From an uncultured Candidatus Binatia bacterium (lineage in GTDB: Bacteria > Desulfobacterota > Binatia > UBA9968 > JAJDTQ01): a stretch of DNA of 64,000 nucleotides. Position 1 is the stretch's first letter. Each line of letters opens with the position of its first letter. Of the stretch, positions 11,457 to 53,596 are shown piece after piece. Under the pieces are notes generated by a model. That model saw only the letters and a list, made by a program, of their open reading frames with translations. It did not search any database and was not told the DNA's origin. The position numbers and the translations under genes were made by a program. The DNA is taken from the NCBI GenBank assembly GCA_965242525.1, contig OZ251459.1:320001-384000 (forward strand), read 5' to 3'.

Positions 11457-12491
11457 ATGGGTTGCCTGGACTTCCGACCTGCATGGGAGTTGCTCTATCG
11501 CAGCGGCCTTTCTGCCGCCGTCGGCCGCCGTTACGCCGGCATCGGGGCCATCTTCGCTTTCCACCGCGTGGCGCCCGACGTGTCCGTCCATCTGGACCGG
11601 GAGTTGTACGTCAGCGCCGGGTTCCTGGAGGCCTGGTTGGCGTCGGTGCGCAAGGCCGGCGTCCGGGTGGTCTCCATGGACGCCGCGGTGGAGCGCATCC
11701 GGGACCCCGGCCCCCGTCCCTCCGGGCGGCGTTTCGTCGTGGTCGCCTTCGACGACGGGTATGCCGACAACGTCACCTGCGCCCTGCCCGTACTGGAAAG
11801 GTTCGACGCGCCGTTCACTGTATATGTCACGACGGACCTGGTGGACGGCGGCGGCTATCCGTGGTGGCTCGGGTTGGAGCGCCTGTTCCGGGACAACGAT
11901 AGGGTTGACGCGGCGCCCATGGGGAGGGCGTTCACCGCCGCGTCCCTGGAGGAAAAGCGTAGAGCCGTGGCGCAAGTGACCGACTGGGTGGCCGCGGACA
12001 TGGAACGGCGCGCGCCGCTGCTGCGCCGGGTCTTCGATCGTTACGGCGTGTCCATGGGCGCCGCGGCCAGGGAGGCTGGACTGTCCCGGGAGCAACTGCG
12101 CGCGCTCGGCCGCCACCCGCTGGCGACCATCGGCGGCCATACCACGAGCCATCCCGAGTTGACGAGTCTGGGTGAGCCGCAGGCGTACCGTGAAATGGCC
12201 GACAACAAGGCATGGCTCGAGGACGTCTGCGGAAGCCCGATCCGTCACTTCGCCTATCCCTACGGCGCTTGCGGACCACGCGAAGCCGCGCTCGCCCGGA
12301 AAGCCGGTTTCGAGACCGCCGCAACCGTCGAGTCCGGTTGCCTGTTCCCCGAGCATCGGGACCATCTCCTGGCCCTGCCGCGATGCTCGGGCCGGGGTTC
12401 CCGGATGTGGCTGAGCTTCATGCACGCCCAACGGCACGGCCTGCCGCGTTTCATCCGGAGCCGGGGCGGCTGTCCCGTGGCCACGCTCTGA
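11457..12491 (+). CDS. Polysaccharide deacetylase (NodB/CE4)
   Basis: FHRV, VAFDDGYADN, GGHTTSHP, HFAYPYG. Confidence 0.9.
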   Translation: MGCLDFRPAWELLYRSGLSAAVGRRYAGIGAIFAFHRVAPDVSVHLDRELYVSAGFLEAWLASVRKAGVRVVSMDAAVERIRDPGPRPSGRRFVVVAFDDGYADNVTCALPVLERFDAPFTVYVTTDLVDGGGYPWWLGLERLFRDNDRVDAAPMGRAFTAASLEEKRRAVAQVTDWVAADMERRAPLLRRVFDRYGVSMGAAAREAGLSREQLRALGRHPLATIGGHTTSHPELTSLGEPQAYREMADNKAWLEDVCGSPIRHFAYPYGACGPREAALARKAGFETAATVESGCLFPEHRDHLLALPRCSGRGSRMWLSFMHAQRHGLPRFIRSRGGCPVATL

Positions 12492-14574
12492 CGGACCCGC
12501 GGCCGTGTCCGCCCACCGGTATCTCCGCGGTCCAGCCCTCGATCCGGCTCCGGATCCCGTAGGAGAACGGTTCGGAGAAGTACAGTCCCGTCCGGATGAC
12601 GGAGAGGGGATAGTCGGGGAGTGAAAGGACGGCGATGCACTTCCCGTCGAACAGCGTGAGGCGCTTGCGGAACCGGAAGTCGAGGTCGCCGGAGCCGTAG
12701 CGCCGGCGCAGTCTGCGCAGGTCTTCCGGGACCGCATCCACGAAGATCCAGTCCCCGACGTCCTCCCGGACGCAGGGCTGCTTGACGTAGGCCAGCGTGT
12801 GGTCACCGAGATAGACGTCGAAGCGGGAGTGCGCTGCGGGGTCTCCGGAGGACACGACCCGTTGGTACGCGGCCCGGTACGACTCCACCAGGTCGTCGAT
12901 ACCCGCGGCGTCGTACAGGAACACCCGTTGGTTGTCGGGGGTGAGCAGGGCGCGGCTCTCCACGCGGTCGCGGGTGACGAGGAAGTCCGCGCTGCGGGCG
13001 GCGGCTTCCACGTCGGGGGAGTGCGTCAGGACGCTTCCGGCGAGGTAGTATTTCCATGCGTGGCGCGGCCGTGTGGCCTGCGTGGACCATTCCGGCTGCA
13101 CGGACTCGAGCACCAGGACCACCTTCCTCCGGGTGGTTTCGCGGATGGCTCCGAGTTCGGCCATGGCGGTCTGCTGGAGTTCGGCCGCCCGTGGGTCCGG
13201 TCCCCATCGTTGGTCCATCTGGAAGGCGGAGGCCGCGAAGGCGAGCAGGGCCGCGGCGGCAAGGCCGACTGCCGGACGAGACCCCCATCGCTCGCGGAAG
13301 TACAGCAGGAGCAGCGAGTAGAGCGCCAGCGGGACGCCCACGTAGTACAGGGCGTCGTGGTTATGGTGTACGGAATTGTGGCGCATGGGCAGGGCCCAGC
13401 AGAACCCGGACAGGGCAAGGGCGGCCAGCAGGAGGCGTTGCCGCCCTTCCAGCAGCGGCCTCGCAAGGCGAACGAGGGCCGCGGCTGCTCCCACGGCCAG
13501 GAGCAACGCCAGGATGTATACCGACAACTCCGGCCCCGAGATGCCCGGGGCCGAAAGGCCGAGGTCGAGGAACCACCCCGCCGGATCGACTGCCCGGTGG
13601 GTGAGCAGGAACGGAACGGAGGCCACGCAGACGCGAAAGAACTGCTGGCGCAGGAAGTCCGGCCACCAACCCACCGGGGCGAAGTCCCGGTCCAGTCCGG
13701 TGCGCCTGAGCATGGACTGGACCGATGGCAGTTCGGTCACCGGGGTCTCGCCTCCGAGGGCGGCGTACTCGTTGGCGAAGTTGAAGGCGAGGAGGGCTGC
13801 TCCGAACAGCAGCGCGGCCAAGCCCAGGGCGGTGTAGCGGCTGCGCAGCACTGCAGCTGCAACGGAGCGCAAACGGAGCCGGGGCGCAGTTCCGTGCTTC
13901 CATGCCCGAAGGGCTTCCCGGGCAAGACCCAGGAGGATGAAGGGAAGCAGGAAGGCGTACACGTGCCAGCCCAGCAGCAGCGCCACGCCGGTCTTGGCCA
14001 GCAACTGCCGGAACCGTCCCTCCTGCACGAAGACGGTCATGCCGTGGAAGGCCAGCATGACCGCGAACAGGCCCATGCCGTACTCGTTGGAAACCGCGTC
14101 GCCGTAGAACAGCATGTAGTAGGAGGAGAAGGCCATCGAGGTGGCTGCCAGTGCGACCCAGGGGCGGGAGGTGATGCGTGCGAGGGAGTGGAAGGCGAGG
14201 ACCGCGGCGGCGCTGAACAGGAGCAGCATGAGGATGCGGGCGGCCAGGATCTTTGCGGAGAGGTCGTTTCCGAAGGGGAGGATGGCGAGCTTGAGGATGG
14301 CGTAACCGCCGACGGGAAAGCGGCTGTACATCCGGTATTTCGGGGCGCCGCCCGGTCTCGCGCGCAACTCCGTGAACAACCGGAAACCGTGGTCGGGGGA
14401 CAGGTTCTCGGCGACGGCCAGGTTTATGGAGGAAATCCCGTCATGGGCGCCGGGACGGTAGAAACGTGCCTTGTCCACGCCGTACAGGAACAACGTGGAC
14501 AGCGCGAGCAGCAGCAACGGCAGGGCAAGGCGTGGGGGCCGGTTTCGAGCCCAGTGGATCAGGGCGTCTCGCAT
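12451..14574 (-). CDS. Multi-TM GT-C-like membrane protein, paralog 2
   Basis: Starts MRDALIHWARNRPPRLALPLLLL; same family motifs; the 5' extension in the ORF track is an off-frame reading of the amidohydrolase. Confidence 0.85.
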   Translation of the reverse strand: MRDALIHWARNRPPRLALPLLLLALSTLFLYGVDKARFYRPGAHDGISSINLAVAENLSPDHGFRLFTELRARPGGAPKYRMYSRFPVGGYAILKLAILPFGNDLSAKILAARILMLLLFSAAAVLAFHSLARITSRPWVALAATSMAFSSYYMLFYGDAVSNEYGMGLFAVMLAFHGMTVFVQEGRFRQLLAKTGVALLLGWHVYAFLLPFILLGLAREALRAWKHGTAPRLRLRSVAAAVLRSRYTALGLAALLFGAALLAFNFANEYAALGGETPVTELPSVQSMLRRTGLDRDFAPVGWWPDFLRQQFFRVCVASVPFLLTHRAVDPAGWFLDLGLSAPGISGPELSVYILALLLAVGAAAALVRLARPLLEGRQRLLLAALALSGFCWALPMRHNSVHHNHDALYYVGVPLALYSLLLLYFRERWGSRPAVGLAAAALLAFAASAFQMDQRWGPDPRAAELQQTAMAELGAIRETTRRKVVLVLESVQPEWSTQATRPRHAWKYYLAGSVLTHSPDVEAAARSADFLVTRDRVESRALLTPDNQRVFLYDAAGIDDLVESYRAAYQRVVSSGDPAAHSRFDVYLGDHTLAYVKQPCVREDVGDWIFVDAVPEDLRRLRRRYGSGDLDFRFRKRLTLFDGKCIAVLSLPDYPLSVIRTGLYFSEPFSYGIRSRIEGWTAEIPVGGHGRGSVRAWPRDSRPGSG

Positions 14575-16025
14575 ACGCGGAAGTACATTTCCGAAAGGGA
14601 CGGCTCCATGACCGCGGCGTCCCGCATCTCCCTTGCGACCACGGGCCGCAGCGGCTCGTAGAGCCGGTTGACCTCCGCCATCACCGCCTCCTCGTCCATC
14701 TTCCGGAGCCGGCCCCCTGCCACCACGACCTCGCCGTTGACCAGCACCGTGTCCACCGAGCCGCCGTTCTCGCAGAACACGAGCTGGGCGGTGACGTCGT
14801 TCAACGGCGTGAACGCCGGCGTCCTGCGGTTCAGCAGGACCACGTCCGCGAGGCGGCCCGGCTCCAGCGCGCCGCAGTCCAGGCCGAAGGCCCGGGCGCC
14901 CCATCGGGTGGCCATGGACATGGCCTGGCGCGCGGTGACCCAGCGGTGGAAATCGTGGTCCCGGGTGTTGTGGACCAGGGCCGCGAGCCTCATGGCGTCG
15001 AACAGGTTCTGGTTGTCGTTGGAGCAGGCCCCGTCGGCGCCCAGGGCCACCCGGCCGCCCGCGGCCAGGAAGTCCGGTATGGGCGCCAGCCCGCTGCCCA
15101 ACCGCAGGTTGCTGGCCGGGTTGTGCACCGGCGTCGCCCCCCGCCTCACCATGATCTCCACGTCTTCCTCGTCGATCCACACGGAGTGGGCGGCGGAGAG
15201 GTTCGGCGTCACCAGGCCGAGGTCGTCCAGGTGCTTCAGCAGCGAGGTCCCGTAGAGCCTCGGCCCCATGAGCGCCTGGGAGCGGGACTCGGCGAGGTGG
15301 ATGTGGAGCGGGACCCCGCATCGGTCGGCGATGGCCGAAGCCCCCCGGAGCAGCTCGTCGGTGCAGCGCTGGACCGCGGAGGGTCCCGGACAGCAGGTGG
15401 TCAACCCCCGGGGGTCGTGCAGTTCCGCGATGAACTCCTCGATCTCGTCCAGCCAGCCGCGGGCGTCCCCGGTCTCGGCCCGGGTCATCCGGCCCACTTC
15501 GCCGCGGGCGTCTCCCTCCGGCGCGTCCAGGGGGATGGTTTCCTCGTAGGGCCGGTCGCTCACGGTCAGGGCCACCACGTGGCGCAACCCCAGGTCCCGC
15601 ATGGCGCGGACCGCTTCCCCGGCGCCGGTGAAGCGGCTGTCCCGGTTGCCGAAGAAATGGTCCAGCATGGTGGTGCAGCCGGTCTTGAGCATCTCCATGG
15701 CTCCGAGGATGGCGCTGGCGTAGAACAGGTCGTCGCTGCAGGCGCGCAGCGCCGCGCGCCAGTAGGCGCGCCAGATCTCCAGGGGCCGCGCGGGCATCAG
15801 GCCGCGGAAGACGTTGGCCGGGGAATGGCAGTGGGCGTTCACGAGGCCGGGGATGGCGATGAAGCCGCTGCCGTCGATGACCCGGTGGCCTTCTTCCCGG
15901 GGACAGCCGGAAGACGGCCCCACGTACTCCAGGCGGTCGCCGTCGATGACCAGGGAGCCGTGCTCGATCACCTCGTCCCGCTCGTTCATGGTAACGACCA
16001 GCGCGTCCTCGATCCGTTGCTTCAT
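14559..16025 (-). CDS. Metal-dependent amidohydrolase (AtzA/MtaD-like deaminase)
   Basis: PGLVNAHCH, HIHLAES, AAHSVW, HNPASNLRLGSG, LGADG. Confidence 0.9.
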   Translation of the reverse strand: MKQRIEDALVVTMNERDEVIEHGSLVIDGDRLEYVGPSSGCPREEGHRVIDGSGFIAIPGLVNAHCHSPANVFRGLMPARPLEIWRAYWRAALRACSDDLFYASAILGAMEMLKTGCTTMLDHFFGNRDSRFTGAGEAVRAMRDLGLRHVVALTVSDRPYEETIPLDAPEGDARGEVGRMTRAETGDARGWLDEIEEFIAELHDPRGLTTCCPGPSAVQRCTDELLRGASAIADRCGVPLHIHLAESRSQALMGPRLYGTSLLKHLDDLGLVTPNLSAAHSVWIDEEDVEIMVRRGATPVHNPASNLRLGSGLAPIPDFLAAGGRVALGADGACSNDNQNLFDAMRLAALVHNTRDHDFHRWVTARQAMSMATRWGARAFGLDCGALEPGRLADVVLLNRRTPAFTPLNDVTAQLVFCENGGSVDTVLVNGEVVVAGGRLRKMDEEAVMAEVNRLYEPLRPVVAREMRDAAVMEPSLSEMYFRVCETP

Positions 16026-16059
16026 GGCGCCTGCCTTTCTCGATCCTGTCCCCGCCAAG

Positions 16060-16515
16060 TCACACGGCCGTCCGGTCGAGGTAGAGGCCCAGGAGGAACA
16101 CGACGGTCCCCAGGGCCACGTTGGCCGCCAGCAGGCGCAGCCACGGGTTCCGGGCCGGGCCGTCCGGGGGGCCTTCCGGCGCCGGGTCGTACCGGAACGC
16201 CTGGAGCGCGTGGTGCAGCGCCATGACCGCGGTCAGGACGGACTTGGCGCCCAGCGCGAGCAGGCTGCCGGAGCCCGCGGCCAGCGGGGAAGGGGCCCCC
16301 GGCAGCAGCAGCCCTCCCACCCCGGACAGTATGGCCAGGGGCGCCGCGGCCGCCGCCACCCGGTTCAGGCCCCGGCCGGCCCTCCGCAGGAGGTCCCGGC
16401 GCGCCTCCGCCGGCAACCGGCGGCTTGCCGGCAGGAGGATGCCCAGGACGAACACGTTGGCGCCCAGCCAGACGCTGAAGGACAGTATGTGGACCCACGG
16501 CACGAAGACTTGCAC
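16060..16515 (-). CDS. Small 4-TM protein, CopD-like, divergent from the cox operon
   Basis: WVHILSFSVWLG first helix; four hydrophobic segments; GTG start inferred. Confidence 0.6.
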   Translation of the reverse strand: MQVFVPWVHILSFSVWLGANVFVLGILLPASRRLPAEARRDLLRRAGRGLNRVAAAAAPLAILSGVGGLLLPGAPSPLAAGSGSLLALGAKSVLTAVMALHHALQAFRYDPAPEGPPDGPARNPWLRLLAANVALGTVVFLLGLYLDRTAV

Positions 16516-16664
16516 CCTTGCACCCGTTTCCCTTCCGGACCGCCGCCGCTCCGCGGATATAGCAGGGACCGCGGGGTTTCTCGACGGATTCCTTCGCCCT
16601 TGATACGTCAAGGCGGTTGTGTTAGCAAAGGGGACCATCCCACGAGGAGGTTCTCGAACTTGCC

Positions 16665-17324
16665 ATGATGCGCTGGCTCCCGGAGAACGTATCGACCTAC
16701 GGTGCCCAGATCGACTACCTGTTCTACCTCATCTACTACATCACCGGCGCGGCGCTGATCGCCGTCACCGTGCTGATGGTCCTCTTCCTCGTGATGTACC
16801 GGCAGAGGGAGGGGCGCAAGGCCGTCTATTCCCACGGCAACACCGCCCTGGAGGTCACCTGGACGGTCATCCCCGCGGTGATCCTGCTCATGCTCTCGTT
16901 CATGAGCATCTCCACCTGGGGCGAGATCAAGATCTACGCTCCGCCGGCCGAGTACGAGGTCAAGGTGGTGGGGAAGCAGTTCAACTGGGACGTGGTCCAT
17001 CCGGGACGAGACGGCAAGCTGGACACCGAGGACGACGTGAAGATCGAGAACGAGCTGCACGTGCCCGTGGACAAGGTGGTGCACGTGCAGCTTACGGCGT
17101 CGGACGTGATCCACAGCTTCTTCGTCCCGAACTTCCGGGTCAAGCAGGACGCCGTCCCCGGGCGCGACATCCTGGTCTGGTTCGAGGCCACGAAGCCCGG
17201 CAGGTACGAGCTCCCCTGCGCGGAGTTGTGCGGCTTCGGCCATTCGGGGATGCTCGGGTGGGTGTTCGTGCACACGCCCGAAGACTACGAGAAATTCCTC
17301 GAGGAGAACGCCGGGCAGGGTTGA
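16665..17324 (+). CDS. coxB: Cytochrome c oxidase subunit II
   Basis: LEVTWTVIP, DVIHSF, CuA motif CAELCGFGHSGM; no fused heme c. Confidence 0.97.
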   Translation: MMRWLPENVSTYGAQIDYLFYLIYYITGAALIAVTVLMVLFLVMYRQREGRKAVYSHGNTALEVTWTVIPAVILLMLSFMSISTWGEIKIYAPPAEYEVKVVGKQFNWDVVHPGRDGKLDTEDDVKIENELHVPVDKVVHVQLTASDVIHSFFVPNFRVKQDAVPGRDILVWFEATKPGRYELPCAELCGFGHSGMLGWVFVHTPEDYEKFLEENAGQG

Positions 17325-17385
17325 CCCGGCCGCGGCCGACCTTCCGGAAGGCCGCGTCTCCGAGGGCACAGGAGGAACATCGAGG

Positions 17386-19128: not shown

Positions 19129-19145
19129 GGCCGAGGCCCGGGGGG

Positions 19146-20965: not shown

Positions 20966-20966
20966 C

Positions 20967-21080
20967 ATGGGGTCACGGAATCCATCGGCGTCCGCAAGGA
21001 ACGCGCGCCTGGGGCTCACCATCGGGGCCGTGGCGGCGGGCTATATCCTCGCCACCGTGGTCTTCCTGGTGGCTTACTAG
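20967..21080 (+). CDS. 37-aa single-TM microprotein inside the cox operon
   Basis: MGSRNPSASARNARLGLTIGAVAAGYILATVVFLVAY*; ATG immediately after the ctaB stop; below the ORF-track cutoff. Confidence 0.7.
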   Translation: MGSRNPSASARNARLGLTIGAVAAGYILATVVFLVAY

Positions 21081-21105
21081 CGGGCCCGGCATCGGACCAT
21101 CGGAC

Positions 21106-21762: not shown

Positions 21763-21811
21763 GGGAGACCGGCAGGACCGGATTCCCCTGGTCGGAAAAG
21801 GAGAACGTCAG

Positions 21812-22429: not shown

Positions 22430-22447
22430 CGATACGGAGAACCAGCC

Positions 22448-28889: not shown

Positions 28890-29070
28890 GCGGCCGTTGT
28901 ACACGGCAACGAGGCGTTTGCGGAAGAAACGCGCCTCCGCATATAATGGGAGCGTCCGGTCGAAGGGCGCCTGACGAAAGCGAAGCCGAAGCAGCTCCTT
29001 GCCCCCGGGTACATTGCCGACGTTGGAGATGCCCTTGTCCTCGATGGGATCGGTGTCGAGGTTCGCCATG
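28890..29070 (-). pseudogene. Decayed internal fragment of the sulfotransferase gene
   Basis: DNA aligns by eye to ~6030-6245; DKGISNVG vs DKSISDVG and PFDRTLPLYAEARFFRKR vs PFDRALSFYAEMRFFHKR, with frameshifts. Confidence 0.8.
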
Positions 29071-31164
29071 CGCGGCTCCGCCCGCCTCACCCTGCCATTG
29101 CTGCTTCTCGCGCTGTCCACGTTGTTCCTGTGCAACCTGGACAAGGGGCGCCTCTACCGTCCCGGCGGCCCTAGCTGGAGTACGGCGTGGAATATGGCGA
29201 TGGCCGAGAACCTGTCGCCCGAGCACCGTTTCCGGTTGTTCCTGGGGCGGCGCCAAGGATCGGGCGGCGTCTCCACCTACGAGATGTACAGCCGCTTTCC
29301 CGTGGGCGGTTACGCGCTCCTCAAACTCGCCATCCTCCCCTTCGGAAACGACCTCTCCGCCAAGATCCTCTCCGCCCGCATGCTCATGTTGCTGTTGTTC
29401 AGCGGTGCTGCGCTCCTGGCGTTCCACGCCCTCGCACGCATCACCTCCCGCCGCTGGGTCGCACTGGCCGCCACCCTCGCGGCCTTCTCCTCCTACTACA
29501 TGCTGTTCTACGCCAACGTGGTTTACAACGAGGGCAGCATGGACCTGTTCGCGGTGATGCTGGCCTTCCACGGCATGGTGGTGTTCGTGCAGGAGGGACG
29601 GTTCCGGCAGTTGCTGGCCAAGACCGGCGTGGCGCTGCTGCTGGGATGGCACGTGTACGCCTTCCTGCTTCCCTTCATCCTCCTGGGCCTGGCCCGGGAG
29701 GCCGTCCGGGCCTGGAAGCACGGAAATGCGCCCCGGCTGCGCTCCGCCGGGGCCGCGGTGCTGCGCAGCCGCTACACCGCCCTTGGCCTGGCCGCGCTGC
29801 TCTTCGGCGCGGCCCTCCTCGCCTTCAACTTCGCCAACGAGTACGCCGCCTTCGGAGGCGAGACCCCGGTGACCGAACTGCCGTCGTTCCAGTCCATGCT
29901 CCGGCGCACCGGACTGGATCGGGACTTCGCCCCGGCGGGGTGGTGGCCGGGCTTCCTGCGCCAGCAGTTCTTTCGCGTCTTCGTGGCCTCCGTTCCGTTC
30001 CTGCTCACCCACCGGGCAGTCGACCCGGCGGGATGGTTCCCTTCCCTCGGCCTTTCGGCCCCGGGCCTTTCGGGGTCGGAGTTGTCGGCATACATCCTGC
30101 TGTTGCTGATGGCTGTCGGAGCAGCCGCGGCCCTCGTTCGGCTTGCGAGGCCGCTGTTGGCAGGGCGGTACCGCATGCTGCTGGCCACCCTTGCCCTGTC
30201 GGGGTTTTGCTGGGCCCTGCTCATGCGCCACAACGTCGCAAACTACTCCCACGACCACGAGGCCCTTTACTACGTGGGTGTCCCGCTGGTGTCCTGCTCA
30301 CTGCTCCTGCTGTACGTCCACCAGCGCTGGGGGCGTGGTCCGGTAGTCGGCCTTGCGGTTGCGGCGCTGCTCGCCTTCGTGGTCTCCGCCTTCCAGATGG
30401 ATCGTTGGCAGCGCCCTGACGACCGGGCGGTCGAGCCGCAGCAGGCCGCCATGGCCGAAATCGGGGCCATCCGCGAAATCATTCGGGGAAAGGTGGTCAT
30501 GGTCCTCGGGTCCGTCGAGCCGGAATGGTACTGGCAGTTCAGCAAGCACCAGGAATGGAGGTACTACCTCGCCGGAAGCATCCTGTCATACCCCCTCCAC
30601 ACGGAAAGCGCCAGGAGGTACCATCGCGCCGGAAGCGCGTTGACGCACTTCCCGGACACGGAAGCCGCCGCCCGCGCCGCGGACTTCCTCATCACCCACG
30701 ACCGCGTGGAGAGCGACGCCCTGCTCACGCCCGGCAACCAACGAGTGTTCCTGTATGGTTCGGCCGGTATCGACGACCTCATGGAGTTCTACCGGGCCAC
30801 GTACCAACGGGTGGCGTCCGGAGAACCTGCGGCGCGCTCCCACTTCGACGTCTATCTCGATGAGGATGCGCTGTTCCACGTCAAGGAACCCTGCGTCCGG
30901 GAGGACGCGGGATTGACGGTCTTCGTGGAGGCGGTCCCGGAAGACCCGAAGGACCTGCCCGAAGGGCGCCGGCGGTACGGCTTCGAGCGGCTTCCCGTCT
31001 TCTTCCAGCACAGTGGAGTGCTGTTCGAGGGGAAGTGCATGGCGATTCTTCCACTTCCCGATTATCCCGTCTCCGGCATCAGGACGGGACAGCGGCCGTT
31101 CCGGCACCCCGGCTGGAAAGGGCACCGCGGCTGGGAAGCAGAGATACCGGTGGACCACCCATGA
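29068..31164 (+). CDS. Multi-TM GT-C-like membrane protein, paralog 3
   Basis: Family motifs; start uncertain (29029-29068). Confidence 0.85.
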   Translation: MRGSARLTLPLLLLALSTLFLCNLDKGRLYRPGGPSWSTAWNMAMAENLSPEHRFRLFLGRRQGSGGVSTYEMYSRFPVGGYALLKLAILPFGNDLSAKILSARMLMLLLFSGAALLAFHALARITSRRWVALAATLAAFSSYYMLFYANVVYNEGSMDLFAVMLAFHGMVVFVQEGRFRQLLAKTGVALLLGWHVYAFLLPFILLGLAREAVRAWKHGNAPRLRSAGAAVLRSRYTALGLAALLFGAALLAFNFANEYAAFGGETPVTELPSFQSMLRRTGLDRDFAPAGWWPGFLRQQFFRVFVASVPFLLTHRAVDPAGWFPSLGLSAPGLSGSELSAYILLLLMAVGAAAALVRLARPLLAGRYRMLLATLALSGFCWALLMRHNVANYSHDHEALYYVGVPLVSCSLLLLYVHQRWGRGPVVGLAVAALLAFVVSAFQMDRWQRPDDRAVEPQQAAMAEIGAIREIIRGKVVMVLGSVEPEWYWQFSKHQEWRYYLAGSILSYPLHTESARRYHRAGSALTHFPDTEAAARAADFLITHDRVESDALLTPGNQRVFLYGSAGIDDLMEFYRATYQRVASGEPAARSHFDVYLDEDALFHVKEPCVREDAGLTVFVEAVPEDPKDLPEGRRRYGFERLPVFFQHSGVLFEGKCMAILPLPDYPVSGIRTGQRPFRHPGWKGHRGWEAEIPVDHP

Positions 31165-40900: not shown

Positions 40901-40903
40901 GAG

Positions 40904-44572: not shown

Positions 44573-44832
44573 GCAGCACCTCCTTGCTGGTTTGGTTCCA
44601 TGCGCCGCGCGGCCGGGGCCGCGGTCCGGCGAACCCGCGTAAAATAGGATGGATCGCCGCGCCAGTCAACCTGAAAGAGAAGTCGCCGCAAACCAAGGCC
44701 GCGTCCGAACTTTCCGTTTGACAACCGCTCCCGCCTGCCATAGAAGGGGGCGTCGCCTGCGAGGACGGGCGGTGCGTTTCCGTGTCCATGCGGCGCTCCG
44801 GCGGGGCGCCAAACCGAGAGGAGGACATCCGT

Positions 44833-45870: not shown

Positions 45871-46014
45871 GCGCCTCCCGGGCTCCGTTCGTCCACGCGA
45901 GACCTTCCGTTGCCCTTCCGTTCCGATGGCCGCGGCAACCCGCGGGCAGGCCGTGGACCTGCCCGCGGGCGCCGCGGATGCGCATGACCGCCGCCCGGTG
46001 GAGGACTACCGCGC

Positions 46015-47790
46015 TTGAGTAGAGACCAGGCAACCGCCGCGGCGCCCGTACCGGACAGGGGCGGTTCCGCGGCGTTCCTCGATTTCCTGCGTCCGAGCCG
46101 GCAGGGGCGCGACTACCCCTTCTGGCTGTTCATCCCCTGCGCGCTGGTGCTGCTCTACCTGGTGGTGCCGCCGTTGGTCTTCATCGTCTATACGAGCTTC
46201 GTTCCTCCCGAGGACTCGGGGATCGTCGGGCTGACGCTCCAGAACTTCTTCCACATATTCGAGTCCCTGGCGGAGTTCGAGATCCTGGTCTGGAACTCCC
46301 TGGTGTTCTCCGTGGGGAGCGCGGCCTGGGCCCTGGTGTTCGGCACGGTGATGGCCTGGTTGGCGGAGCGCAGCAACGCGCCGTTCCGCATGGTGGCGTA
46401 CCTGGCGGCCTTCGTGTCGTTTGCCGTGCCCGGGCTCATCAAGGTCATCGGCTGGATCCTGCTGCTGGGGCCGGAGGCCGGTTTCATCAACCTGGCGGTG
46501 GGCTCGGTCACCGGCGTCGCCCCGATCTTCGACATCTTCTCCATGAGCGGCATGGTGCTGGTGGAGGGCTTCCTGTGGACCCCCATCGTCTTCCTGCTCA
46601 TGGCCACGCCGTTCCGTTCCATGGACCCGTCCCTGGAGGAAGCCGCGGTGGTGGCCGGCAGCAGCGACTGGCAGGTCTTCTGGAAGGTCACCCTGCCCAT
46701 GGCCATGCCCAGCGTGCTGTCGGTGCTGATCCTCACGTTCATCCGCAGCCTGGAGGCCTTCGAGATCCCCGCGCTGGTGGGTCTCCCCGCGGGCATCGAG
46801 GTGATGACCACCCAGATCTACCTCCAGTTGAGCGAGGGCTACATCCCCGAGTACGGCAACGCCAGCGCCTACTCCGTGATCCTCATCGGCATCGTGGCCC
46901 TGTGCCTGCTGCCCTACTACCGGGTGACCCAGCACGCGCACCGGTTCACCACCATCACCGGCAAGGGGTTCCAGCCCCGGCGGAAGGACCTGGGACGCTG
47001 GCGCTGGCTGGGAGGGCTGGCCCTGCTGGGCCTGCCGGCGTTGCAGCTCCTCCCGCTCACCGCCCTGGTGTGGGCGAGCTTCATGCCCTACCTGCAGGTG
47101 CCTTCGTGGGAGGCCCTCTCCCTGCTCACCCTCGACAACTACGCGGTGGCGTTCAGCGACGACAAGATCCTGAGCTCCATCATGAACAACCTCATCATCA
47201 GCATCGTTTCCGCCACCGCCTGCGTGGGCGTGGCGTTCGTCACGGCCTGGCTGGTGACGCGGACGAACATCCGGATGCGCTGGTCCCTGGACCGGCTCAC
47301 GATGGTGCCCCTGGTCTTCCCCGGCATCGTCATGGGAGTGGCGGTCCTCCAGACCTACCTCACGGTGCCCATCCCCGTCTATGGCACCATCTGGATCATG
47401 GTCATCGCCTTCTCCGCCCGTTACCTGCCGTACGCCATGCGGTTCAGCCACGCCGGGCTCATCGGCATCCACCGGGAGCTGGAGGAGAGCGCCACCACCA
47501 GCGGATCGAGCTGGGGACAGGTGGCCCGGAAGATCATGGTCCCGTTGATGATGCCGGCGCTGTTCGCCGGCTGGATCTACATCTTCCTCATCACCATCCG
47601 GGAGCTGTCGGTGGCGCTGCTGCTCTACAGCCCGGGGTCCGAGGTGATCTCCGTAGTCATCTGGGAGCTCTGGGACAACGGCGCGGTGGGCACCCTGTCC
47701 GCCTTCGCCCTGGGCATCAGTGCGGGGACCGTGCTGCTGGCCTGCGTCTTCTACCGGCTGAGCCGCCGCCACGGCCTGGACGTGCGCTGA
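46015..47790 (+). CDS. ABC permease (FbpB-like, fused double domain)
   Basis: MDPSLEEAA and ELEESA EAA loops. Confidence 0.9.
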   Translation: MSRDQATAAAPVPDRGGSAAFLDFLRPSRQGRDYPFWLFIPCALVLLYLVVPPLVFIVYTSFVPPEDSGIVGLTLQNFFHIFESLAEFEILVWNSLVFSVGSAAWALVFGTVMAWLAERSNAPFRMVAYLAAFVSFAVPGLIKVIGWILLLGPEAGFINLAVGSVTGVAPIFDIFSMSGMVLVEGFLWTPIVFLLMATPFRSMDPSLEEAAVVAGSSDWQVFWKVTLPMAMPSVLSVLILTFIRSLEAFEIPALVGLPAGIEVMTTQIYLQLSEGYIPEYGNASAYSVILIGIVALCLLPYYRVTQHAHRFTTITGKGFQPRRKDLGRWRWLGGLALLGLPALQLLPLTALVWASFMPYLQVPSWEALSLLTLDNYAVAFSDDKILSSIMNNLIISIVSATACVGVAFVTAWLVTRTNIRMRWSLDRLTMVPLVFPGIVMGVAVLQTYLTVPIPVYGTIWIMVIAFSARYLPYAMRFSHAGLIGIHRELEESATTSGSSWGQVARKIMVPLMMPALFAGWIYIFLITIRELSVALLLYSPGSEVISVVIWELWDNGAVGTLSAFALGISAGTVLLACVFYRLSRRHGLDVR

Positions 47791-47876
47791 GCCTTCGGGA
47801 CCGGCGCTGCCGCGAGCGGTTGGCGCAGACGTCCCGGGCGCGCGGAGACGGAGCCACGTGGACGGAATCGTGGACC

Positions 47877-50051
47877 ATGCCGCAAACGTCGATTCCTGGA
47901 AGACGGAGACATACCACCGTGCCCCCGCTCCCCCCCGGGACCGGGTGCAGGCCTGAACGCCTCCCCCTGTCGTTGCTGCTTCTCGCACTGTCCACGTTGT
48001 TCCTGTGCAGCATGGACAAGGGGTACTTCTACCGTTTCGGCGAGCATAACTGGGATACGGGGAAGAACTTGGCCATCGCCGAGAACCTGTCGCCCGACCA
48101 CCACTTCCGGTTGTTCCTGGCGCGGCGCCAAGGGTCGGGCGACGCTCCGATCCACCAGATGTACAGCCGCTTTCCCGTGGGCGGATACGCGCTCATCAAA
48201 CTCGCCATCCTCCCATTCGGAAACGACCTGTCCGCCAGGATCCTCGCCGCCCGAATGCTCATGTTGGCGTTGTTCAGCGCCGCTGCGCTCCTGGCCTTCC
48301 ACTCCCTCGCCCGCATCACCTCCCGCCGCTGGATCGCGCTGGCCGCCACCCTCATGGCGTTCTCCTCCTCCTACATGCTGTTCTACAACGACTCGGTTTC
48401 CGGGGAGTACAGCATGGACCTGTTCGCGGTCATGCTGGTGTTCCACGGCATGGTGGTGTTCGTGCAGGAGGGACGGTTCCGGCAGTTGCTGGCCAGGACC
48501 TGCGTTGCGCTGCTGCTGGGCTGGCACGTGTATGCGTTCCTGCTGCCGTTCCTCCTCCTGGGCCTGGGTAGCGAGGCGGTTCGGGCGTGGAAGGACGAGA
48601 CGGCGCTGTGGCCGCGTGCGCGCTCTGCCGGGGCGGCGGCGCTGCGCAGCCGCTACATGGCCCTTGGCCTGGCCGCGCTGCTGTTCGGCGCGGCCGTCCT
48701 GGGATTCAACTTCGCCAACGAGTACGCCGCGTTCGGAGGCGAGACCCCGGTGACGGAACTGCCGTCGTTCCGGTCCATGCTCAGGCGGACCACCGGCGTG
48801 GGCCAGGACCTGGACGCCCCTTTCCACTCCGGTGGGTGGCCGGGCTTCCTGCGAGAGCAGTTCCACCGTGTCTGCGTGGCGTCCGTTCCATGGGTGCTGA
48901 CCGACTGGGGCGCCGGTTTGCGGGGGCGGTTCCCTCCGGTTCCCTTTTCGGCGTCCGGCCTTTCGGGGCCGGAGTTGTCGGTTTACCTGCTGTCGTTGCT
49001 GCTGGCGGTGGCCGCATCCGCGGCAGCGGTTCGGCTTGCGAAGCCGCCGTTGGCAGGCCGGTCCCGCCTGCTGCTGGCCGCCCTTGCCCTGTCCGGGTTC
49101 TTCTGGGCGCTGCCCATGCGCCACAACGTTGCCGCCCACCCTCACGAGGCCCTGTACTACGTGGGCGTGCCGCTGGTGTCGTACTCACTGCTCCTGCTGT
49201 ACGTCCACCAGCGCTGGGGGCGTGGTCCGGTGGTCGGCCTTGCGGTTGCGGCCCTGCTCGCCTTCGTGGTCTCCGCCTTCGGGACGGAACGACGGTGGCG
49301 CCCCGACGCCCGGGCGGCAGAGGTCCAGCGAACCGCCATGGCCGAGCTCGGGGCCATCCGCGAGACCACCCGGGGAAAGGCGGTCCTGGTCATCGGGTCC
49401 GTCGAGCCGGAATGGTCCTGGCAGGTCGCGCACCTGTACTACGAATGGAGGTACTATCTCGCAGGTAGCGTCCTGGCGCACTCCCTCCACACGGAACACC
49501 CCTGGAGCTACTATCCCGCCGGAAGCGCGTTGACACACTTCCCGGACATGGAAGACGCCGCCCGCGCCGCGGACTTCATCGTCACCCGAGACCATGTGGA
49601 GAGCGGCGCCCTGCTCACACCCGGGAACCAACGGGTGTTCCTGTATGATTCCGCGGGTATCGACGACCTGGTGGAGTTGTACCGGGCCACGTACCAACGG
49701 GTGGTGTCCGGAGAACCTGCGGCGCGCTCCCAATTCGACGTCTATCTCGATGAGGACGCGCTGTTCCACGTCAAGGAGCCCTGCGTCCGGGAGGACGTGG
49801 GATCGAAGGTCTTCGTGAAGGTCGTCCCGGAAGACCCGAAGGACCTTCCCGAAAGGATCCCGCGGCATGGTTCCAGGGGTCTTCGTGTTTTCTTCCAGCG
49901 AAGCGGCGTGCTGTTCGAGGGGAAGTGCATGGCGATTCTTCCGCTTCCCGATTATCCCGTCTCCGTCCTCAGGACGGGACAGCAGCCGTCCCGACACCCC
50001 GGCTGGAAAGGACCCCCCGGCTGGGAAGTAGAGATACCGGCGAGCCGGTAG
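47877..50051 (+). CDS. Multi-TM GT-C-like membrane protein, paralog 5
   Basis: Starts MPQTSIPG; family motifs; the track's 5' extension is an off-frame reading of the permease. Confidence 0.85.
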   Translation: MPQTSIPGRRRHTTVPPLPPGTGCRPERLPLSLLLLALSTLFLCSMDKGYFYRFGEHNWDTGKNLAIAENLSPDHHFRLFLARRQGSGDAPIHQMYSRFPVGGYALIKLAILPFGNDLSARILAARMLMLALFSAAALLAFHSLARITSRRWIALAATLMAFSSSYMLFYNDSVSGEYSMDLFAVMLVFHGMVVFVQEGRFRQLLARTCVALLLGWHVYAFLLPFLLLGLGSEAVRAWKDETALWPRARSAGAAALRSRYMALGLAALLFGAAVLGFNFANEYAAFGGETPVTELPSFRSMLRRTTGVGQDLDAPFHSGGWPGFLREQFHRVCVASVPWVLTDWGAGLRGRFPPVPFSASGLSGPELSVYLLSLLLAVAASAAAVRLAKPPLAGRSRLLLAALALSGFFWALPMRHNVAAHPHEALYYVGVPLVSYSLLLLYVHQRWGRGPVVGLAVAALLAFVVSAFGTERRWRPDARAAEVQRTAMAELGAIRETTRGKAVLVIGSVEPEWSWQVAHLYYEWRYYLAGSVLAHSLHTEHPWSYYPAGSALTHFPDMEDAARAADFIVTRDHVESGALLTPGNQRVFLYDSAGIDDLVELYRATYQRVVSGEPAARSQFDVYLDEDALFHVKEPCVREDVGSKVFVKVVPEDPKDLPERIPRHGSRGLRVFFQRSGVLFEGKCMAILPLPDYPVSVLRTGQQPSRHPGWKGPPGWEVEIPASR

Positions 50052-50103
50052 TCTCCATCGGCCGCCCTTGCCGTTCGGGTTCGCCTCGAGGACCGCGTCC
50101 AGG

Positions 50104-51345
50104 CTATGGAGCGGCGGAGGCGTCCGTACGCAGGAGCTCCAGGAGTTCCGGACTCGGCAACCCGTCCGCCCGCCGCCGTTTCTCCTTCTGGTAGTCCCGT
50201 ATGGCGGCCCGGGTCCGGGGACCGAGAATCCCGTCCACCTTGCCGATGTCGTATCCCTTGGCGGCCAGGAGGCGTTGCAGCTCCTTGCGGTGGGTCTCGG
50301 CCAGGGGGCGGGCCCCGTCCGGCCAAGCCAGGAGCGCTCCCTCGTCCCGCAGCCGGTCGGCGAGGTGCCCGACGGCCAGCGCGTACTTGCGCGCGGGGTT
50401 GTAGCGCATGATCGAGCGAAAGTTCCGGCGCAGCAGGAAGGCAGGCCCGTCCGTTCCCGCCGGAAGGTAGAGGTAGGCGTTGTCTCCGGGGTGTGGAAAC
50501 GCGAGGCCGTCGGCGCGCCGCAGACCCATGCGCCGCCATTCGCGGACCGCCCTCTCGCCCTCGGGCCCGGCCGCATCGGCCCCGAGGCCTTGCGGAAGGG
50601 TGACGTGGTGGCCCCAGGGTCTTCCGGGCGCCCAGCCGTTCCGGCGCAGGTAGTTGGCGGTGGAGGCCAGCGCGTCCTCCGGCGTGTTCCAGATGTCCCG
50701 GCGGCCGTCGCCGGTGAAGTCCACCGCGTAGGCCGCGTAGCTGGTGGGGATGAACTGCGTGTGGCCCATGGCCCCGGCCCAGGAGCCGGTCATGCGCGGG
50801 AGCGCCACGTCCCCGGCCTCGAGGATCGCGAGCGCGGCCAGCAGTTGCTTGCGGCCGAACCTGGCGCGGCGTCCCTTGTAGGCCAGGGTGGAGAGGGACC
50901 GGATCACGTTCCGGTGGCCGCGCAGCGCGCCGTAGAGCGTTTCCATGCCCCAGACCGCCACCAGCACGCGGCGATCGACTCCGTAGCGCCGTTCCATCCG
51001 CTCCAGGTCGGCTGCGTGCTCGGACAGCTTGGCGCGCCCTTCCCGCACGCGCGTGTCCGTGACCGTCAGGGCCACGTAGTGCGACGGCGGCAGCACGAAC
51101 TCGGGTTGGCGGTCGTTCCTCTCGATGACTTCCGGGTCGGGGGTGAGGCCGCGGAACGCGCGGTCGTACAGGGGCCCCGGGATGCCGTGCCTGAGCGCCT
51201 CCCCCCGGAACTCCTCCACGAACTTCCGATAGGCCGCGTGGTCGGACGCGCTCGGCGGAGCCGCGGAAGCGGGCGCCGGGTTCCCGACGGCCGCCAGGAC
51301 CAGGGCGGCCGCCAAGCCTGCGCCGGTCCTCATCCTGCCGCTCAT
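50104..51345 (-). CDS. Lytic murein transglycosylase (MltB/SLT_2 family) with peptidoglycan-binding domain
   Basis: WGMETLYG, GSWAGAMGHTQFIPTSY, DFTGDGRRDIW, DGILGPRTRAAI. Confidence 0.95.
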   Translation of the reverse strand: MSGRMRTGAGLAAALVLAAVGNPAPASAAPPSASDHAAYRKFVEEFRGEALRHGIPGPLYDRAFRGLTPDPEVIERNDRQPEFVLPPSHYVALTVTDTRVREGRAKLSEHAADLERMERRYGVDRRVLVAVWGMETLYGALRGHRNVIRSLSTLAYKGRRARFGRKQLLAALAILEAGDVALPRMTGSWAGAMGHTQFIPTSYAAYAVDFTGDGRRDIWNTPEDALASTANYLRRNGWAPGRPWGHHVTLPQGLGADAAGPEGERAVREWRRMGLRRADGLAFPHPGDNAYLYLPAGTDGPAFLLRRNFRSIMRYNPARKYALAVGHLADRLRDEGALLAWPDGARPLAETHRKELQRLLAAKGYDIGKVDGILGPRTRAAIRDYQKEKRRRADGLPSPELLELLRTDASAAP

Positions 51346-51376
51346 GGGGAGACTATCCGGCTTCCGGTGCGGGGTG

Positions 51377-53596
51377 TCAAGGGAGCCGCCCGGGCCGGCC
51401 CACCGGCAATTCTACTTCCCAGCCGCGGCGTCCTTTCCAGTCGGGGAGCCGGTATGGCTGCTGTCCCGTCCTGACGCTGGAGACGGGATAATCGGGAAGT
51501 GGAAGGACGGCCATGCACTTCCCCTCGAACAGCACGCCGCTTTGTTGGAAGAGGATGTAAAGCTCTTCGGATCCGTGCCGCCGGCGCTCTTCGGGAAGGT
51601 CCTTCGGGTCTTCCGGGACCACCTCCACGAAGGCCGTCAATCCCACGTCTTCCCGGACGCAGGGATCCTTGACGTGGAAGATGGCGTCCTCACCGAGATG
51701 GACGTCGAAGTGGGAGCGCGCCGCAGGTTCTCCGGACGCCACCCGTTGGTGCGTGGCCCGGTAGAACGCCACCAAGTCGTCGATACCGGCCGAACCATAC
51801 AGGAATACCCGTTGGTTGCCGGGCGTGAGCAGGGCGCTGCTCTCCACGCGGTCGCGGGTGACGAGGAAGTCCGCGGCGCGGGCGGCGGCTTCCATGTCCG
51901 GGAAGTGCGTCAACGCGCTTCCGGCGGGGTGGTATCTCATGGCGCCTTGCGTGTGGAGGGAGTACGCCAGGACGCTTCCTGCGAGGTAGTACCTCCATTT
52001 GTACTGCTGCTGTGTGACCTGCCAGGACCATTCCGGCTCGACGGACCCGAGGACCAGGACCGCCTTTCCCCGGGTGGTTTCGCGGATGGCCCCGAGTTCG
52101 GCCATGGCGGTTCGCTGGATCTCTGCCACCCGGGCGTCGGGGCGCCACCGTCGTTCCGTCCCGAAGGCGGAGACCACGAAGGCGAGCAGGGCCGCAACCG
52201 CAAGGCCGACCACCGGACCGCGCCCCCAGCGCCGGTGGACGTACAGCAGGAGCAGTGAGTACAGCACCAGCGGCGCGCCCACGTAGTACATGGCCTCGTG
52301 AGGGTGGTAGGCAACGTTGTGGCGCATGAGCAGGGCCCAGCAGAACCCGGACAGGGCAAGGGTGCCCAGCAGCATGCGGCGCCGCCCTGCCAACAGCGGC
52401 TTCGCAAGCCGAACCGCGGCCGCGGATGCGGCCACCGCCGCCAGCAACGACAGGAGGTAAACCGACAACTCCGGCCCCGAAAGGCCGGACGCCGAAAAGG
52501 GAACCGGCGGGAGCCACCCCCGCAAACCGGCGCCCCAGTCGGTCAGCACCCATGGAACGGACGCCACGCGGACACGATGGAACTGCTGTCGCAGGAAGCG
52601 CAGCCACCACCTGGAGTGGAAGGGGGCGTCCAGGTCCTGGCCCACGCCGGTGGTCCGCCTGAGCATGGCCCCGAAGGACGGCAGTTCCGTCACCGGGGTC
52701 TCGCCTCCGAACGCGGCGTACTCGTTGGCGAAGTTGAATCCCAGGACGGCCGCGCCGAACAGCAGCGCGGCCAGGCCAAGGGCCATGTAGCGGCTGCGCA
52801 GCACCGCCGCCCCGGCAGAGCGCGCACGCGGCCACAGCGCCGTCTCGTCCTTCCACGCCCGAACCGCCTCGCTACCCAGGCCCAGGAGGAGGAACGGCAG
52901 CAGGAACGCATACACGTGCCAGCCCAGCAGCAGCGCAACGCAGGTCCTGGCCAGCAACTGCCGGAACCGTCCCTCCTGCACGAACACCACCATGCCGTGG
53001 AAGGCCAGCATGACCGCGAACAGGTCCACGCTGTACTCCACGCAAACCCTGTTGCCGAACGACAGCATGTAGTAGGAGGAGAACGCCATGAGGGTGGCGG
53101 CCAGCGCGACCCAGCGGCGGGAGGTGATGCGGGCGAGGGAGTGGAAGGCCAGGAGCGCAGCACCGCTGAACAGGAGCAACATGAGCATTCGGGCGGCGAG
53201 GATCCTGGCGGACAGGTCGTTTCCGAATGGGAGGATGGCGAGTTTGATGAGCGCGTAACCGCCCACGGGAAAGCGGCCGTACAGTTCGTAGGCGGGGGCG
53301 CCGCCCGGTCCCGGGCGCAGTCCCGGCGACAACCGGAAACGGTGGTGGGGCGACAGGTTCTCGGCGATGGCCAGGGTCTTCCCCGTGTTCCAGGTAGGGT
53401 GCTCCGAACGGTAGAAGTACCCCTTGTCCACGTTGCACAGGAACAACGTGGACAGTGCGAGCAGCAGCAACCACAGGGTGAGGCGTTCCGGCCGGCCCCC
53501 CGGGGAGGATGAGGCGGGCTTCACGAATGGTCCGTCTCCGTCTTCCAGATCGACGGCTTCCTTGTCGGGCGGTGGATCCGGGATGGCGCGCGTCAT
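51377..53596 (-). CDS. Multi-TM GT-C-like membrane protein, paralog 6
   Basis: ATGA overlap with the upstream arylsulfotransferase; family motifs. Confidence 0.87.
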   Translation of the reverse strand: MTRAIPDPPPDKEAVDLEDGDGPFVKPASSSPGGRPERLTLWLLLLALSTLFLCNVDKGYFYRSEHPTWNTGKTLAIAENLSPHHRFRLSPGLRPGPGGAPAYELYGRFPVGGYALIKLAILPFGNDLSARILAARMLMLLLFSGAALLAFHSLARITSRRWVALAATLMAFSSYYMLSFGNRVCVEYSVDLFAVMLAFHGMVVFVQEGRFRQLLARTCVALLLGWHVYAFLLPFLLLGLGSEAVRAWKDETALWPRARSAGAAVLRSRYMALGLAALLFGAAVLGFNFANEYAAFGGETPVTELPSFGAMLRRTTGVGQDLDAPFHSRWWLRFLRQQFHRVRVASVPWVLTDWGAGLRGWLPPVPFSASGLSGPELSVYLLSLLAAVAASAAAVRLAKPLLAGRRRMLLGTLALSGFCWALLMRHNVAYHPHEAMYYVGAPLVLYSLLLLYVHRRWGRGPVVGLAVAALLAFVVSAFGTERRWRPDARVAEIQRTAMAELGAIRETTRGKAVLVLGSVEPEWSWQVTQQQYKWRYYLAGSVLAYSLHTQGAMRYHPAGSALTHFPDMEAAARAADFLVTRDRVESSALLTPGNQRVFLYGSAGIDDLVAFYRATHQRVASGEPAARSHFDVHLGEDAIFHVKDPCVREDVGLTAFVEVVPEDPKDLPEERRRHGSEELYILFQQSGVLFEGKCMAVLPLPDYPVSSVRTGQQPYRLPDWKGRRGWEVELPVGRPGRLP

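Follow-up and report, generated by a model that had tools for sequence, protein, structure and literature searches.

Mosaic paralogs and partitioned concerted evolution in a large family of predicted GT-C membrane proteins of an uncultured Candidatus Binatia bacterium

Six copies of a predicted GT-C family in the window

The window, a stretch of 64,000 nucleotides (nt) from the genome of an uncultured Candidatus Binatia bacterium (contig OZ251459.1, hereafter C1, positions 320001-384000; C1 coordinates below refer to that contig), contains six intact paralogous genes, c1 to c6, whose products are predicted to adopt the glycosyltransferase-C (GT-C) fold. The nearest relative of a copy changes along the gene, and in comparison with a sister genome the conserved and the variable blocks of the family have evolved differently. 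An earlier note on this DNA had described mosaic paralogs within positions 12451-53596; c1 falls outside that interval. The six copies, in amino acids (aa), are:

3455-5548, plus strand: copy 1 (c1), 697 aa, GT-C-fold paralog
12451 to ~14574, minus strand: copy 2 (c2), ~707 aa; the open frame continues to 15321
~29029-31164, plus strand: copy 3 (c3), ~711 aa
31161-33275, plus strand: copy 4 (c4), 704 aa; the copy modelled and used as search query
~47877-50051, plus strand: copy 5 (c5), ~724 aa; the open frame starts far upstream, at 46575
51377-53596, minus strand: copy 6 (c6), up to 739 aa; the clearest mosaic

The stop codon of c3 overlaps the start codon of c4 (ATGA). Copy c6 is inverted relative to c5, from which it is separated by a lytic transglycosylase gene (50107-51411, minus strand).

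None of the six copies matched a Pfam family at E ≤0.1, and neither c1 nor c4 matched an NCBIfam family. A structural model of c4 built from 46 homologs reached a predicted local distance difference test score (pLDDT) of 85.8 and a predicted template modelling score of 0.90, and all 29 matches with E ≤0.001 in a Foldseek search of this model against PDB were GT-C glycosyltransferases. As modelled, the ~700-aa proteins show a GT-C fold with an N-terminal multi-helix membrane domain of GT-C architecture (~11 helices) and a C-terminal domain ending in a beta-sandwich. R108, Q185 and W198 are invariant among the aligned homologs, and at the position of Asp29, where the first loop of c4 begins, 35 of the 46 have D and two have E. 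Neighbours in the ESM Atlas were unnamed or belonged to RgtA-D-like or PMT_2 clusters, which provides a lead only. A family-profile search of solved structures gave a single match, an RND transporter (E 4e-5), which we dismissed as irrelevant. From the modelled fold, the most likely function is the transfer of a sugar from a polyprenyl-phosphate carrier to an acceptor outside the cytoplasmic membrane.

Three observations weigh against this assignment: no glycosyltransferase model of Pfam (PMT, PMT_2) or NCBIfam matches, Asp29 is not invariant, and the sidedness of the protein comes from a topology drawn by hand, for which hydrophobic stretches were combined with the positive-inside rule and the GT-C architecture. 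In this topology the N-terminus would lie inside, and the parts facing outward would be loop 1 (residues 26-102 of c4), the short loop 2 (~151-160), loop 4 (258-344) and the C-terminal domain (451-704). Loop 4 is long, flexible and partly of low pLDDT. We infer that the variable blocks of the protein determine acceptor specificity.

The whole genome (4.23 Mb, 7 contigs) encodes 28 full-length open copies and one frameshifted copy. Together they amount to ~62 kb or ~1.5% of the genome; in the sister genome the share is ~2.4%. Start codons lie 10-38 codons before the first membrane helix in the 22 copies examined of the 28. Eleven copies form a tandem array at C1:938300-962159, with members 92-93% alike. 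They have in common a conserved N-terminal extension of ~25-35 residues, and nearly all of them differ mutually in loop 1 and in the C-terminal block. Partial matches in the genome are limited to repeats of the C-terminal domain in two other proteins; open reading frames (ORFs) of ~800 aa at C1:1173307-1174137 and C1:3995705-3996472 each contain two tandem matches to this domain at 28-41% identity.

Mosaic structure of the copies

The earlier note had based its case on short motifs shared by changing pairs of copies, and all 11 motifs looked up sit in the copies that it named. The N-terminal block of c6 has ERLTLW and PHHRFR in common with c4, and its middle has KDETALW in common with c5; TTGVGQD occurs in c4, c5 and c6, and the full DLDAPFHS form is restricted to c5 and c6. 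KDGTAV is found in c1 and c4. The middle of c3 shares RAWKHG, GLDRDF and LTHRAVDP with c2, and its C-terminus shares GVLFEGK and LPLPDYP with c5 and c6. Copies c1, c4 and c5 all end in EIPASR followed by the stop codon.

In a codon alignment of the six copies (656 ungapped codons, 79-91% pairwise nucleotide identity), the nearest relative of c6 changes from c4 at the 5' end to c5 in the middle and to c3 at the 3' end. Copies c3, c4 and c5 also switch their nearest relative along the gene, as does c1; the middle of c3 is nearest to c2 and to a copy near 3920 kb, its 3' end to c5 and c6. Copies c5 and c6 are 91% identical overall and 99-100% identical across several hundred nt in the middle. The pairwise homoplasy index (PHI) of the six copies was 0.334 against a permuted mean of 0.478 (standard deviation (sd) 0.007), with 0 of 1000 permutations as low, and third codon positions alone gave 0.322 against 0.481 (sd 0.017; 0 of 1000). 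A breakpoint scan by parsimony over all 105 six-taxon topologies (penalty 8) placed four breakpoints, at alignment nt 222, 806, 1048 and 1479, across which the supported split passes from {c4,c6} to {c5,c6}, back to {c4,c6}, again to {c5,c6} and finally to {c3,c6}; 200 site shuffles produced 0.05 breakpoints on average and two at most. The two outer segments of c6 lie in the window as follows:

53266-53488, minus strand: 5' segment of c6, nearest relative c4 (split {c4,c6}); 93-97% identity to c4; motifs at 53488 and 53350; limits approximate, hand-converted from alignment nt 1-222
51377-51980, minus strand: 3' segment of c6, nearest relative c3 (split {c3,c6}); 88-93% identity to c3; motifs at 51538 and 51505; upper limit approximate, hand-converted from alignment nt 1480

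The same pattern extends to the 28 copies of the genome, for which the PHI was not reached in any of 500 permutations. With the 28-copy alignment divided into six segments, every segment rejected the trees of the other five as well as the whole-gene tree (36 of 36 comparisons, log-likelihood difference (delta lnL) 67-364, p ≤0.0025 in the approximately unbiased (AU) test). Two recombination-free alignments simulated on the whole-gene tree served as a control for noisy trees of short segments: here the true tree withstood all 12 tests (p ≥0.285, delta lnL ≤5.3), and cross-segment differences were confined to a delta lnL of 0-44. Identical tracts longer than in 2000 of 2000 site permutations were found in 9 of the 378 pairs among the 28 copies, where ~0.2 pairs are expected. 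The longest, of 442 nt and covering 268 polymorphic sites, joins c2 to the copy at C1:3920662-3922764, which is only 85-93% like c2 outside the tract and lies ~3.6 Mb away (~0.56 Mb if the contig is circular).

Nearest relatives switch along these genes far beyond chance, and two signs of interlocus conversion are both present, in that trees conflict from one part of the gene to another and that identical tracts exceed chance. The PHI, the breakpoint scan, the segment trees and the 442-nt tract all bear out the segmental gene conversion that had been proposed from the motifs. The accompanying claim that the window lacks a dedicated recombinase holds as far as it was tested, since a Pfam scan of the 38 ORFs of the window detected no recombinase, integrase or transposase domain.

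Assembly chimeras of similar copies could imitate mosaic genes, and uneven constraint along the gene could imitate recombination. Among public runs 17 were found, 15 of them containing part of the stretch and none of them RNA, and four (X1, X2, X3 and X5) were compared over window positions 46000-55500. The public k-mer contigs of these four runs end within c5 and c6 and none of them covers a whole copy, which leaves room for chimeras and counts against our reading. However, the unique flanks together with the first or last 150-300 nt of c5 and c6 showed no difference in X1, X2 and X3, three runs from two studies. The switching segments of c6 are 88-97% identical to their nearest relatives, whereas a chimera would give 100%, and chimeras are therefore unlikely. 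Furthermore, the signal persists at third codon positions, and the same family-wide pattern occurs in a second, independently assembled genome. An artefact of either kind appears extremely improbable. The fourth run, X5, is labelled as a sponge metagenome and contains a variant 95-99% alike; this variant is without 128 nt just upstream of c5 (47790-47919) and carries 13 additional bases behind 51398, close to where c6 ends.

Concerted evolution and distribution of the family

Full-length copies were present in one of the 24 other genomes of the same genus that were searched. This sister genome, G023, is a metagenome-assembled genome (MAG) labelled 'uncultured Candidatus Binatia bacterium' (OZ241979.1), from which 45 full-length copies were extracted. 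Two loci of the window have positional counterparts there with both flanks syntenic: the c1 locus corresponds to L046, where two tandem copies stand between the same flanking genes, and the c2 locus to L042. The genes flanking c1 and c2 are 84-97% identical between the two genomes.

A nucleotide tree built jointly for 72 copies from 543 ungapped codons, without the long-branch copy B483k, needs a single change of genome label, whereas 200 label shuffles required at least 17. Placing c2 and its positional ortholog B1117k as sisters was rejected on the joint alignment (delta lnL 276.5, p 2e-67). In every one of the 16 blocks of the alignment, best matches are on average higher within the genome than to the sister genome. 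Copies of one genome resemble each other more than positional orthologs do across genomes, the pattern expected of concerted evolution.

The comparison with loci of a related genome, which the earlier note had recommended, also separated the two kinds of blocks. The constant blocks (867 columns) need one label change and none of their 22 two-leaf clades crosses the genomes; the variable blocks (762 columns) need six label changes, and 3 of 24 two-leaf clades cross. The crossing pairs are c2 with B1117k (support 92), c4 with B1098k (support 89) and one weak pair (support 34), and c2 is sister to the L042 copy on the variable blocks only. This contrast in label changes indicates that conversion mainly homogenises the scaffold within a genome, whereas the variable blocks keep an older orthologous signal. 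The family has undergone recombination and a concerted evolution that is partitioned between blocks.

Several results weigh against this reading. The sister grouping of c1 with its positional counterpart was borderline (p 0.054 with one of the two tandem copies, 0.019 with both) and not clearly rejected. Copies c4 and B1098k have one flank in common only, and that in a different arrangement. A single clade of all 28 copies was not rejected by the variable blocks (delta lnL 79.7, p-AU 0.096), so that the contrast between block types rests on the moderate supports of 89 and 92, which are values of the Shimodaira-Hasegawa-like approximate likelihood ratio test (SH-aLRT) only. Finally, in the subset of a wider protein tree described below, the copies of this genome need four label changes and not one, and those of G023 need three.

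Another genome of the genus, G002, matched weakly and in the C-terminal domain alone, and copies were absent from 16 genomes of two other families of the same order. A search with c4 returned 1399 proteins at E ≤0.001 among the 8000 candidates scored, all of them unnamed, and among representatives of 50%-identity clusters 1733 clusters match at E ≤0.001. MAGs labelled Dehalococcoidia, Chloroflexota, Pseudomonadales, Candidatus Azotimanducaceae and Vicinamibacterales contain copies at 35-42% identity, in many cases arranged in tandem. In some distant homologs, e.g. P0183 (1851 aa), the C-terminal domain is repeated 3-10 times. The protein tree comprises 60 rows (36 of 43 distant ORFs, 12 of the 28 copies of this genome and 12 of the 45 of G023), and in it copies cluster by genome, 13 groups needing 14 label changes where the minimum is 12. 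The clade of this genome and its sister is itself sister to three copies of one Dehalococcoidia-labelled MAG (L062, L064; OZ242043.1) with a support of 98; this grouping hints at a transfer between phyla, for which the unrooted tree gives no direction. A description of this GT-C family was not found in the literature on Binatota, on sponge symbionts, on GT-C expansions or on conversion among glycosyltransferase paralogs.

Clustering by genome in every genome sampled is also what a birth-and-death process would leave, in which a recent lineage-specific expansion gave rise to hybrid copies by unequal crossing-over at their birth and not by later conversion. Tandem arrangements that could support such births exist (c3 with c4, and the 11-copy array), and the physically close c4, c5 and c6 are the most alike. 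Yet the c1 and c2 loci are syntenic with the sister genome and hence predate the split of the two genomes, although their constant blocks group within the genome. In addition, the 442-nt identical tract links distant copies in genes that are otherwise 85-93% identical, and most copies stand alone among unrelated housekeeping genes. We consider an origin of the mosaics through hybrid births very unlikely.

In our assessment the mosaics are probably the product of ordinary interlocus gene conversion in a family of GT-C paralogs, with a homogenised scaffold and divergent blocks that keep the identity of the copies. Non-reciprocal homologous recombination between copies would create the mosaics; the general recombination machinery should suffice for it, with no dedicated recombinase required, and in the tandem arrays unequal crossing-over probably contributes. 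Conversion would mostly run through the conserved scaffold and lead to its concerted evolution within the genome. The divergent blocks, i.e. loop 1, the short loop 2, the flexible loop 4 and the C-terminal domain, would largely escape conversion and so preserve the identity of each copy, and an occasional tract may carry a variable block across, giving rise to the patterns of block sharing between copies.

Diversity and stability of the variable blocks

When grouped at 93% nucleotide identity, the 28 copies fall into 26 types for loop 1 and 27 types for the C-terminal 104 residues, and into a single type for block 161-211. Transfer of loops is nevertheless visible in places: part of loop 1 is common to c4 and c6, and one C-terminal type to c3, c5 and c6.

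Four relatives 91-93% identical to c4 (P0001-P0004) carry its loop 1 including its private insertion. Each of them differs from c4 at 1 of 49 positions of loop 1, whereas the difference in most other blocks is 5-17%, so that loop 1 of c4 has been stable over that timescale. Fast change of variable blocks between close relatives was thus not seen in c4, the one copy for which the comparison was made. A point against this argument is that P0001-P0004 are taken as orthologs of c4 from protein likeness alone. In P0002, the loop-2 block is identical to c6 at 15 of 15 residues and to c4 at 11 of 15, and a block of 30 residues matches c5 and c6 at 28; these patches look like fresh conversion between close lineages.

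The ratio of nonsynonymous to synonymous divergence (dN/dS; pooled Nei-Gojobori estimates with 95% bootstrap intervals) in the tandem array was 0.32 (0.24-0.43) for the constant and 1.16 (0.90-1.49) for the variable blocks. For all 28 copies the values were 0.36 and 0.86 (0.73-1.02), respectively. The ratio of the variable blocks is not significantly above 1. Two reservations weigh against reading it as selection for diversity, since a ratio near 1 is equally compatible with relaxed constraint and with diversifying selection, and alignment error in the variable blocks inflates dN. Taken with the stability of loop 1, these ratios suggest divergence after duplication followed by constraint and are no proof of diversifying selection.

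Poly-C runs and antigenic variation

Of the 74 copies in the two genomes, eight carry runs of 11-26 C. None of these is among the six copies of the window, where no such run reaches 10 bases and c1 has an internal run of nine C. Seven of the eight runs stand directly before the first membrane helix. In this genome, copy p3086k has a run of 16 C (C1:3088022) between the ATG and the first helix and is in frame as assembled, and the broken copy (C1:2291.5-2293.6 kb) loses its frame exactly at a run of 18 C (C1:2293189). In the sister genome, 6 of 45 copies (B124k, B481k, B642k, B647k, B1386k and B3960k) carry 11-26 C at the same place, directly preceding a conserved stretch ahead of the first helix. 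A long homopolymer in the 5' coding region, as expected of a contingency locus, is confined to these eight copies. The position of the seven runs before the first helix suggests on/off switching of the copies concerned.

The chromosome of this genome has 27 runs of at least 10 C or G in total, one of them at C1:2560724. By a hand calculation the enrichment of runs in the family is weak here, with 2 observed against ~0.4 expected (Poisson p ~0.06). In the sister genome ~1 run would be expected in the family, and the six observed have a Poisson p of ~6e-4; this, too, is a rough hand calculation, with a background of ~43 runs of at least 11 extrapolated from 15 among the first 100 of 287 listed positions. 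In the opa adhesin genes of Neisseria gonorrhoeae, discussed further below, every locus to our knowledge carries the repeat, and here long runs are a feature of few copies.

The earlier note had likened the family to antigenic-variation loci in which the loops are shuffled combinatorially. As a statement that some loops have been transferred this holds for c4 and c6 (loop 1) and for c3, c5 and c6 (C-terminus); its emphasis on antigenic variation is not supported, given that silent cassettes are absent, that 28 copies have 26 types of loop 1 and 27 of the C-terminus, that conversion mostly homogenises the constant blocks and that loop 1 of c4 is stable. An expression site fed by silent, truncated or promoterless cassettes was not observed, 28 of the 29 copies being full-length open frames. 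A diversity-generating retroelement was likewise not detected, as the genome (98.96% complete) has no match to the reverse transcriptase model RVT_1, with which control genomes matched.

A programmed contingency system resembling antigenic variation, in which conversion re-assorts the exposed loops, single copies are switched and the phases of surface glycans or proteins change, would account for the variable blocks common to otherwise different copies and for a dN/dS of ~1 in the putatively periplasmic blocks against ~0.3 elsewhere. The poly-C runs fit it as well, with seven before the first helix, the eighth at a frameshift and so few C or G runs of this length on the chromosome. It fits poorly with the absence of truncated or promoterless cassettes, with six window copies that are intact and have no run of at least 10 bases, and with a loop 1 of c4 that is nearly invariant in four close relatives. 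The 26 loop-1 and 27 C-terminal types in 28 copies moreover imply that few blocks have been re-assorted, and the family of this genome is only weakly enriched in runs. Such a system seems to us quite unlikely, and ordinary gene conversion among the paralogs the better account of the mosaics.

Gene neighbourhoods and other features of the window

The copies are flanked by diverse housekeeping genes, as judged from the 38 ORFs of the window and 48 of the 77 ORFs around other copies that were scanned. Neither a consistent operon partner nor a mobile-element gene was seen in these 38 and 48 ORFs, and no recombinase domain occurred in the 48 ORFs around other copies. Polysaccharide deacetylase genes adjoin c2 in one case and lie near c6 in another. 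Elsewhere in the genome, a GT2 glycosyltransferase gene lies behind the copy at 893 kb and a GT4 gene ahead of the one at 3920 kb. Further features of the window are:

5597-6589, minus strand: Sulfotransfer_2 gene (sulfotransferase-like), adjoins c1
8690-10378, plus strand: 563-aa ORF; no Pfam match, weak NCBIfam match to LA_3751/LA_3752 putative glycosyltransferase (E 3e-9, far below the cut-off)
11267-11376 and 62946-63057: ~110-nt interspersed repeat, copies 84-94% alike
53596-55311, minus strand: arylsulfotransferase-like (ASST-like) gene, adjoins c6; multi-copy
57924-62942, minus strand: probable locus for a ribosomally synthesised and post-translationally modified peptide (RiPP), with an MbnB/TglH/ChrH-family gene (61887-62942), an unannotated ORF (61070-61915), an ABC exporter gene (59263-61110) and a gene for an HlyD-type protein (57924-59303)

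The 563-aa ORF may encode another divergent membrane glycosyltransferase, to judge from its weak match. Nucleotide matches of 78-83% to the arylsulfotransferase-like gene adjoin family copies at the sister loci L032, L041 and L050. The 110-nt repeat occurs at ~720 places in the genome, roughly one per 5.8 kb, and in many copies at the sister-genome loci. It adjoins several sister-genome copies and was considered as an element specific to the family, but of 723 places in this genome a single one falls within 500 nt of a family copy, and the idea was dropped.

Comparison with known systems

In the pilE/pilS, vlsE and msp2 systems, a single expression site is fed by silent partial cassettes. Conserved stretches guide the conversion of variable segments there, as they probably do in the present family; the silent-cassette layout is absent here. 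Among glycosyltransferases, the c4 model matches the fold of GT-C enzymes of the ArnT/PMT type (PDB 5f15, 9i5l and 6p25) over ~370-435 residues. Like these enzymes, the family is predicted to have an outer loop that is long and flexible and an outer domain at the C-terminus. They also have an acidic residue at the opening of the first outer loop, and Asp29 is a candidate counterpart of this catalytic Asp of ArnT or PglB.

Among bacterial paralogs, tufA/tufB and the rRNA operons undergo interlocus gene conversion and concerted evolution (Wang and Chen 2018, PMC6053082). The present family resembles the cases presented there in that copies of one genome are more alike than positional orthologs of different genomes, that identical tracts and conflicting trees occur, and that no dedicated recombinase is involved. 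Those cases, in contrast, mostly concern pairs of genes that are homogenised from end to end, whereas here ~29-45 copies are homogenised in the conserved blocks only.

By analogy, the nearest functional counterparts are the opa family and Salmonella GtrC. The genome of Neisseria gonorrhoeae has 9-12 opa loci (Yu et al. 2026, PMC13183285). The likeness lies in many complete loci, in conserved frames around hypervariable regions, in near-identical pairs within a genome and in a coding repeat that sets the reading frame; the difference is that opa genes encode small outer-membrane adhesins, whereas the present proteins are predicted inner-membrane enzymes, one of which has a variable loop that is stable among close relatives. 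The Salmonella gtr operons, of which there are one to four per genome (Davies et al. 2013, PMC3688519), are phage-borne, each with gtrA and gtrB, and show Dam/OxyR phase variation. GtrC as depicted there resembles the present family as a specificity-defining membrane transferase with many sequence families, recombination, gene shuffling and phase-variable expression. Unlike the gtr genes of that account, the 28-45 copies here are mostly solitary chromosomal genes, and any switching would proceed via poly-C slippage. A GT2 gene was located directly downstream of a copy in only one of the scanned neighbourhoods.

Implications for the family and the organism

The formation of mosaics by gene conversion between paralogs is in itself a textbook, ordinary process. 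What is moderately unusual is its setting in an unusually large family, and one of GT-C proteins that has no Pfam or NCBIfam model, was found at full length in only one of the 24 other genomes of the genus searched and reappears in distant MAGs.

At the level of the organism, the copies might form a multi-locus, phase-variable repertoire acting on glycans, with a uniform donor-binding scaffold, acceptor loops proper to each copy and a subset switched by poly-C, in an uncultivated and probably host-associated bacterium. We put this forward tentatively and regard it as rather unlikely. If it were true, 30-45 periplasm-facing transferases would give the cell combinatorial surface decorations with which to face phages or a host, and the scaffold, kept uniform by recombination, would remain a platform for exchange.

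As a natural case of partitioned concerted evolution the family is a clean one, since homogenisation affects the scaffold and the putative specificity blocks keep their orthology. It thereby provides a practical starting point for the question of acceptor specificity in GT-C enzymes.

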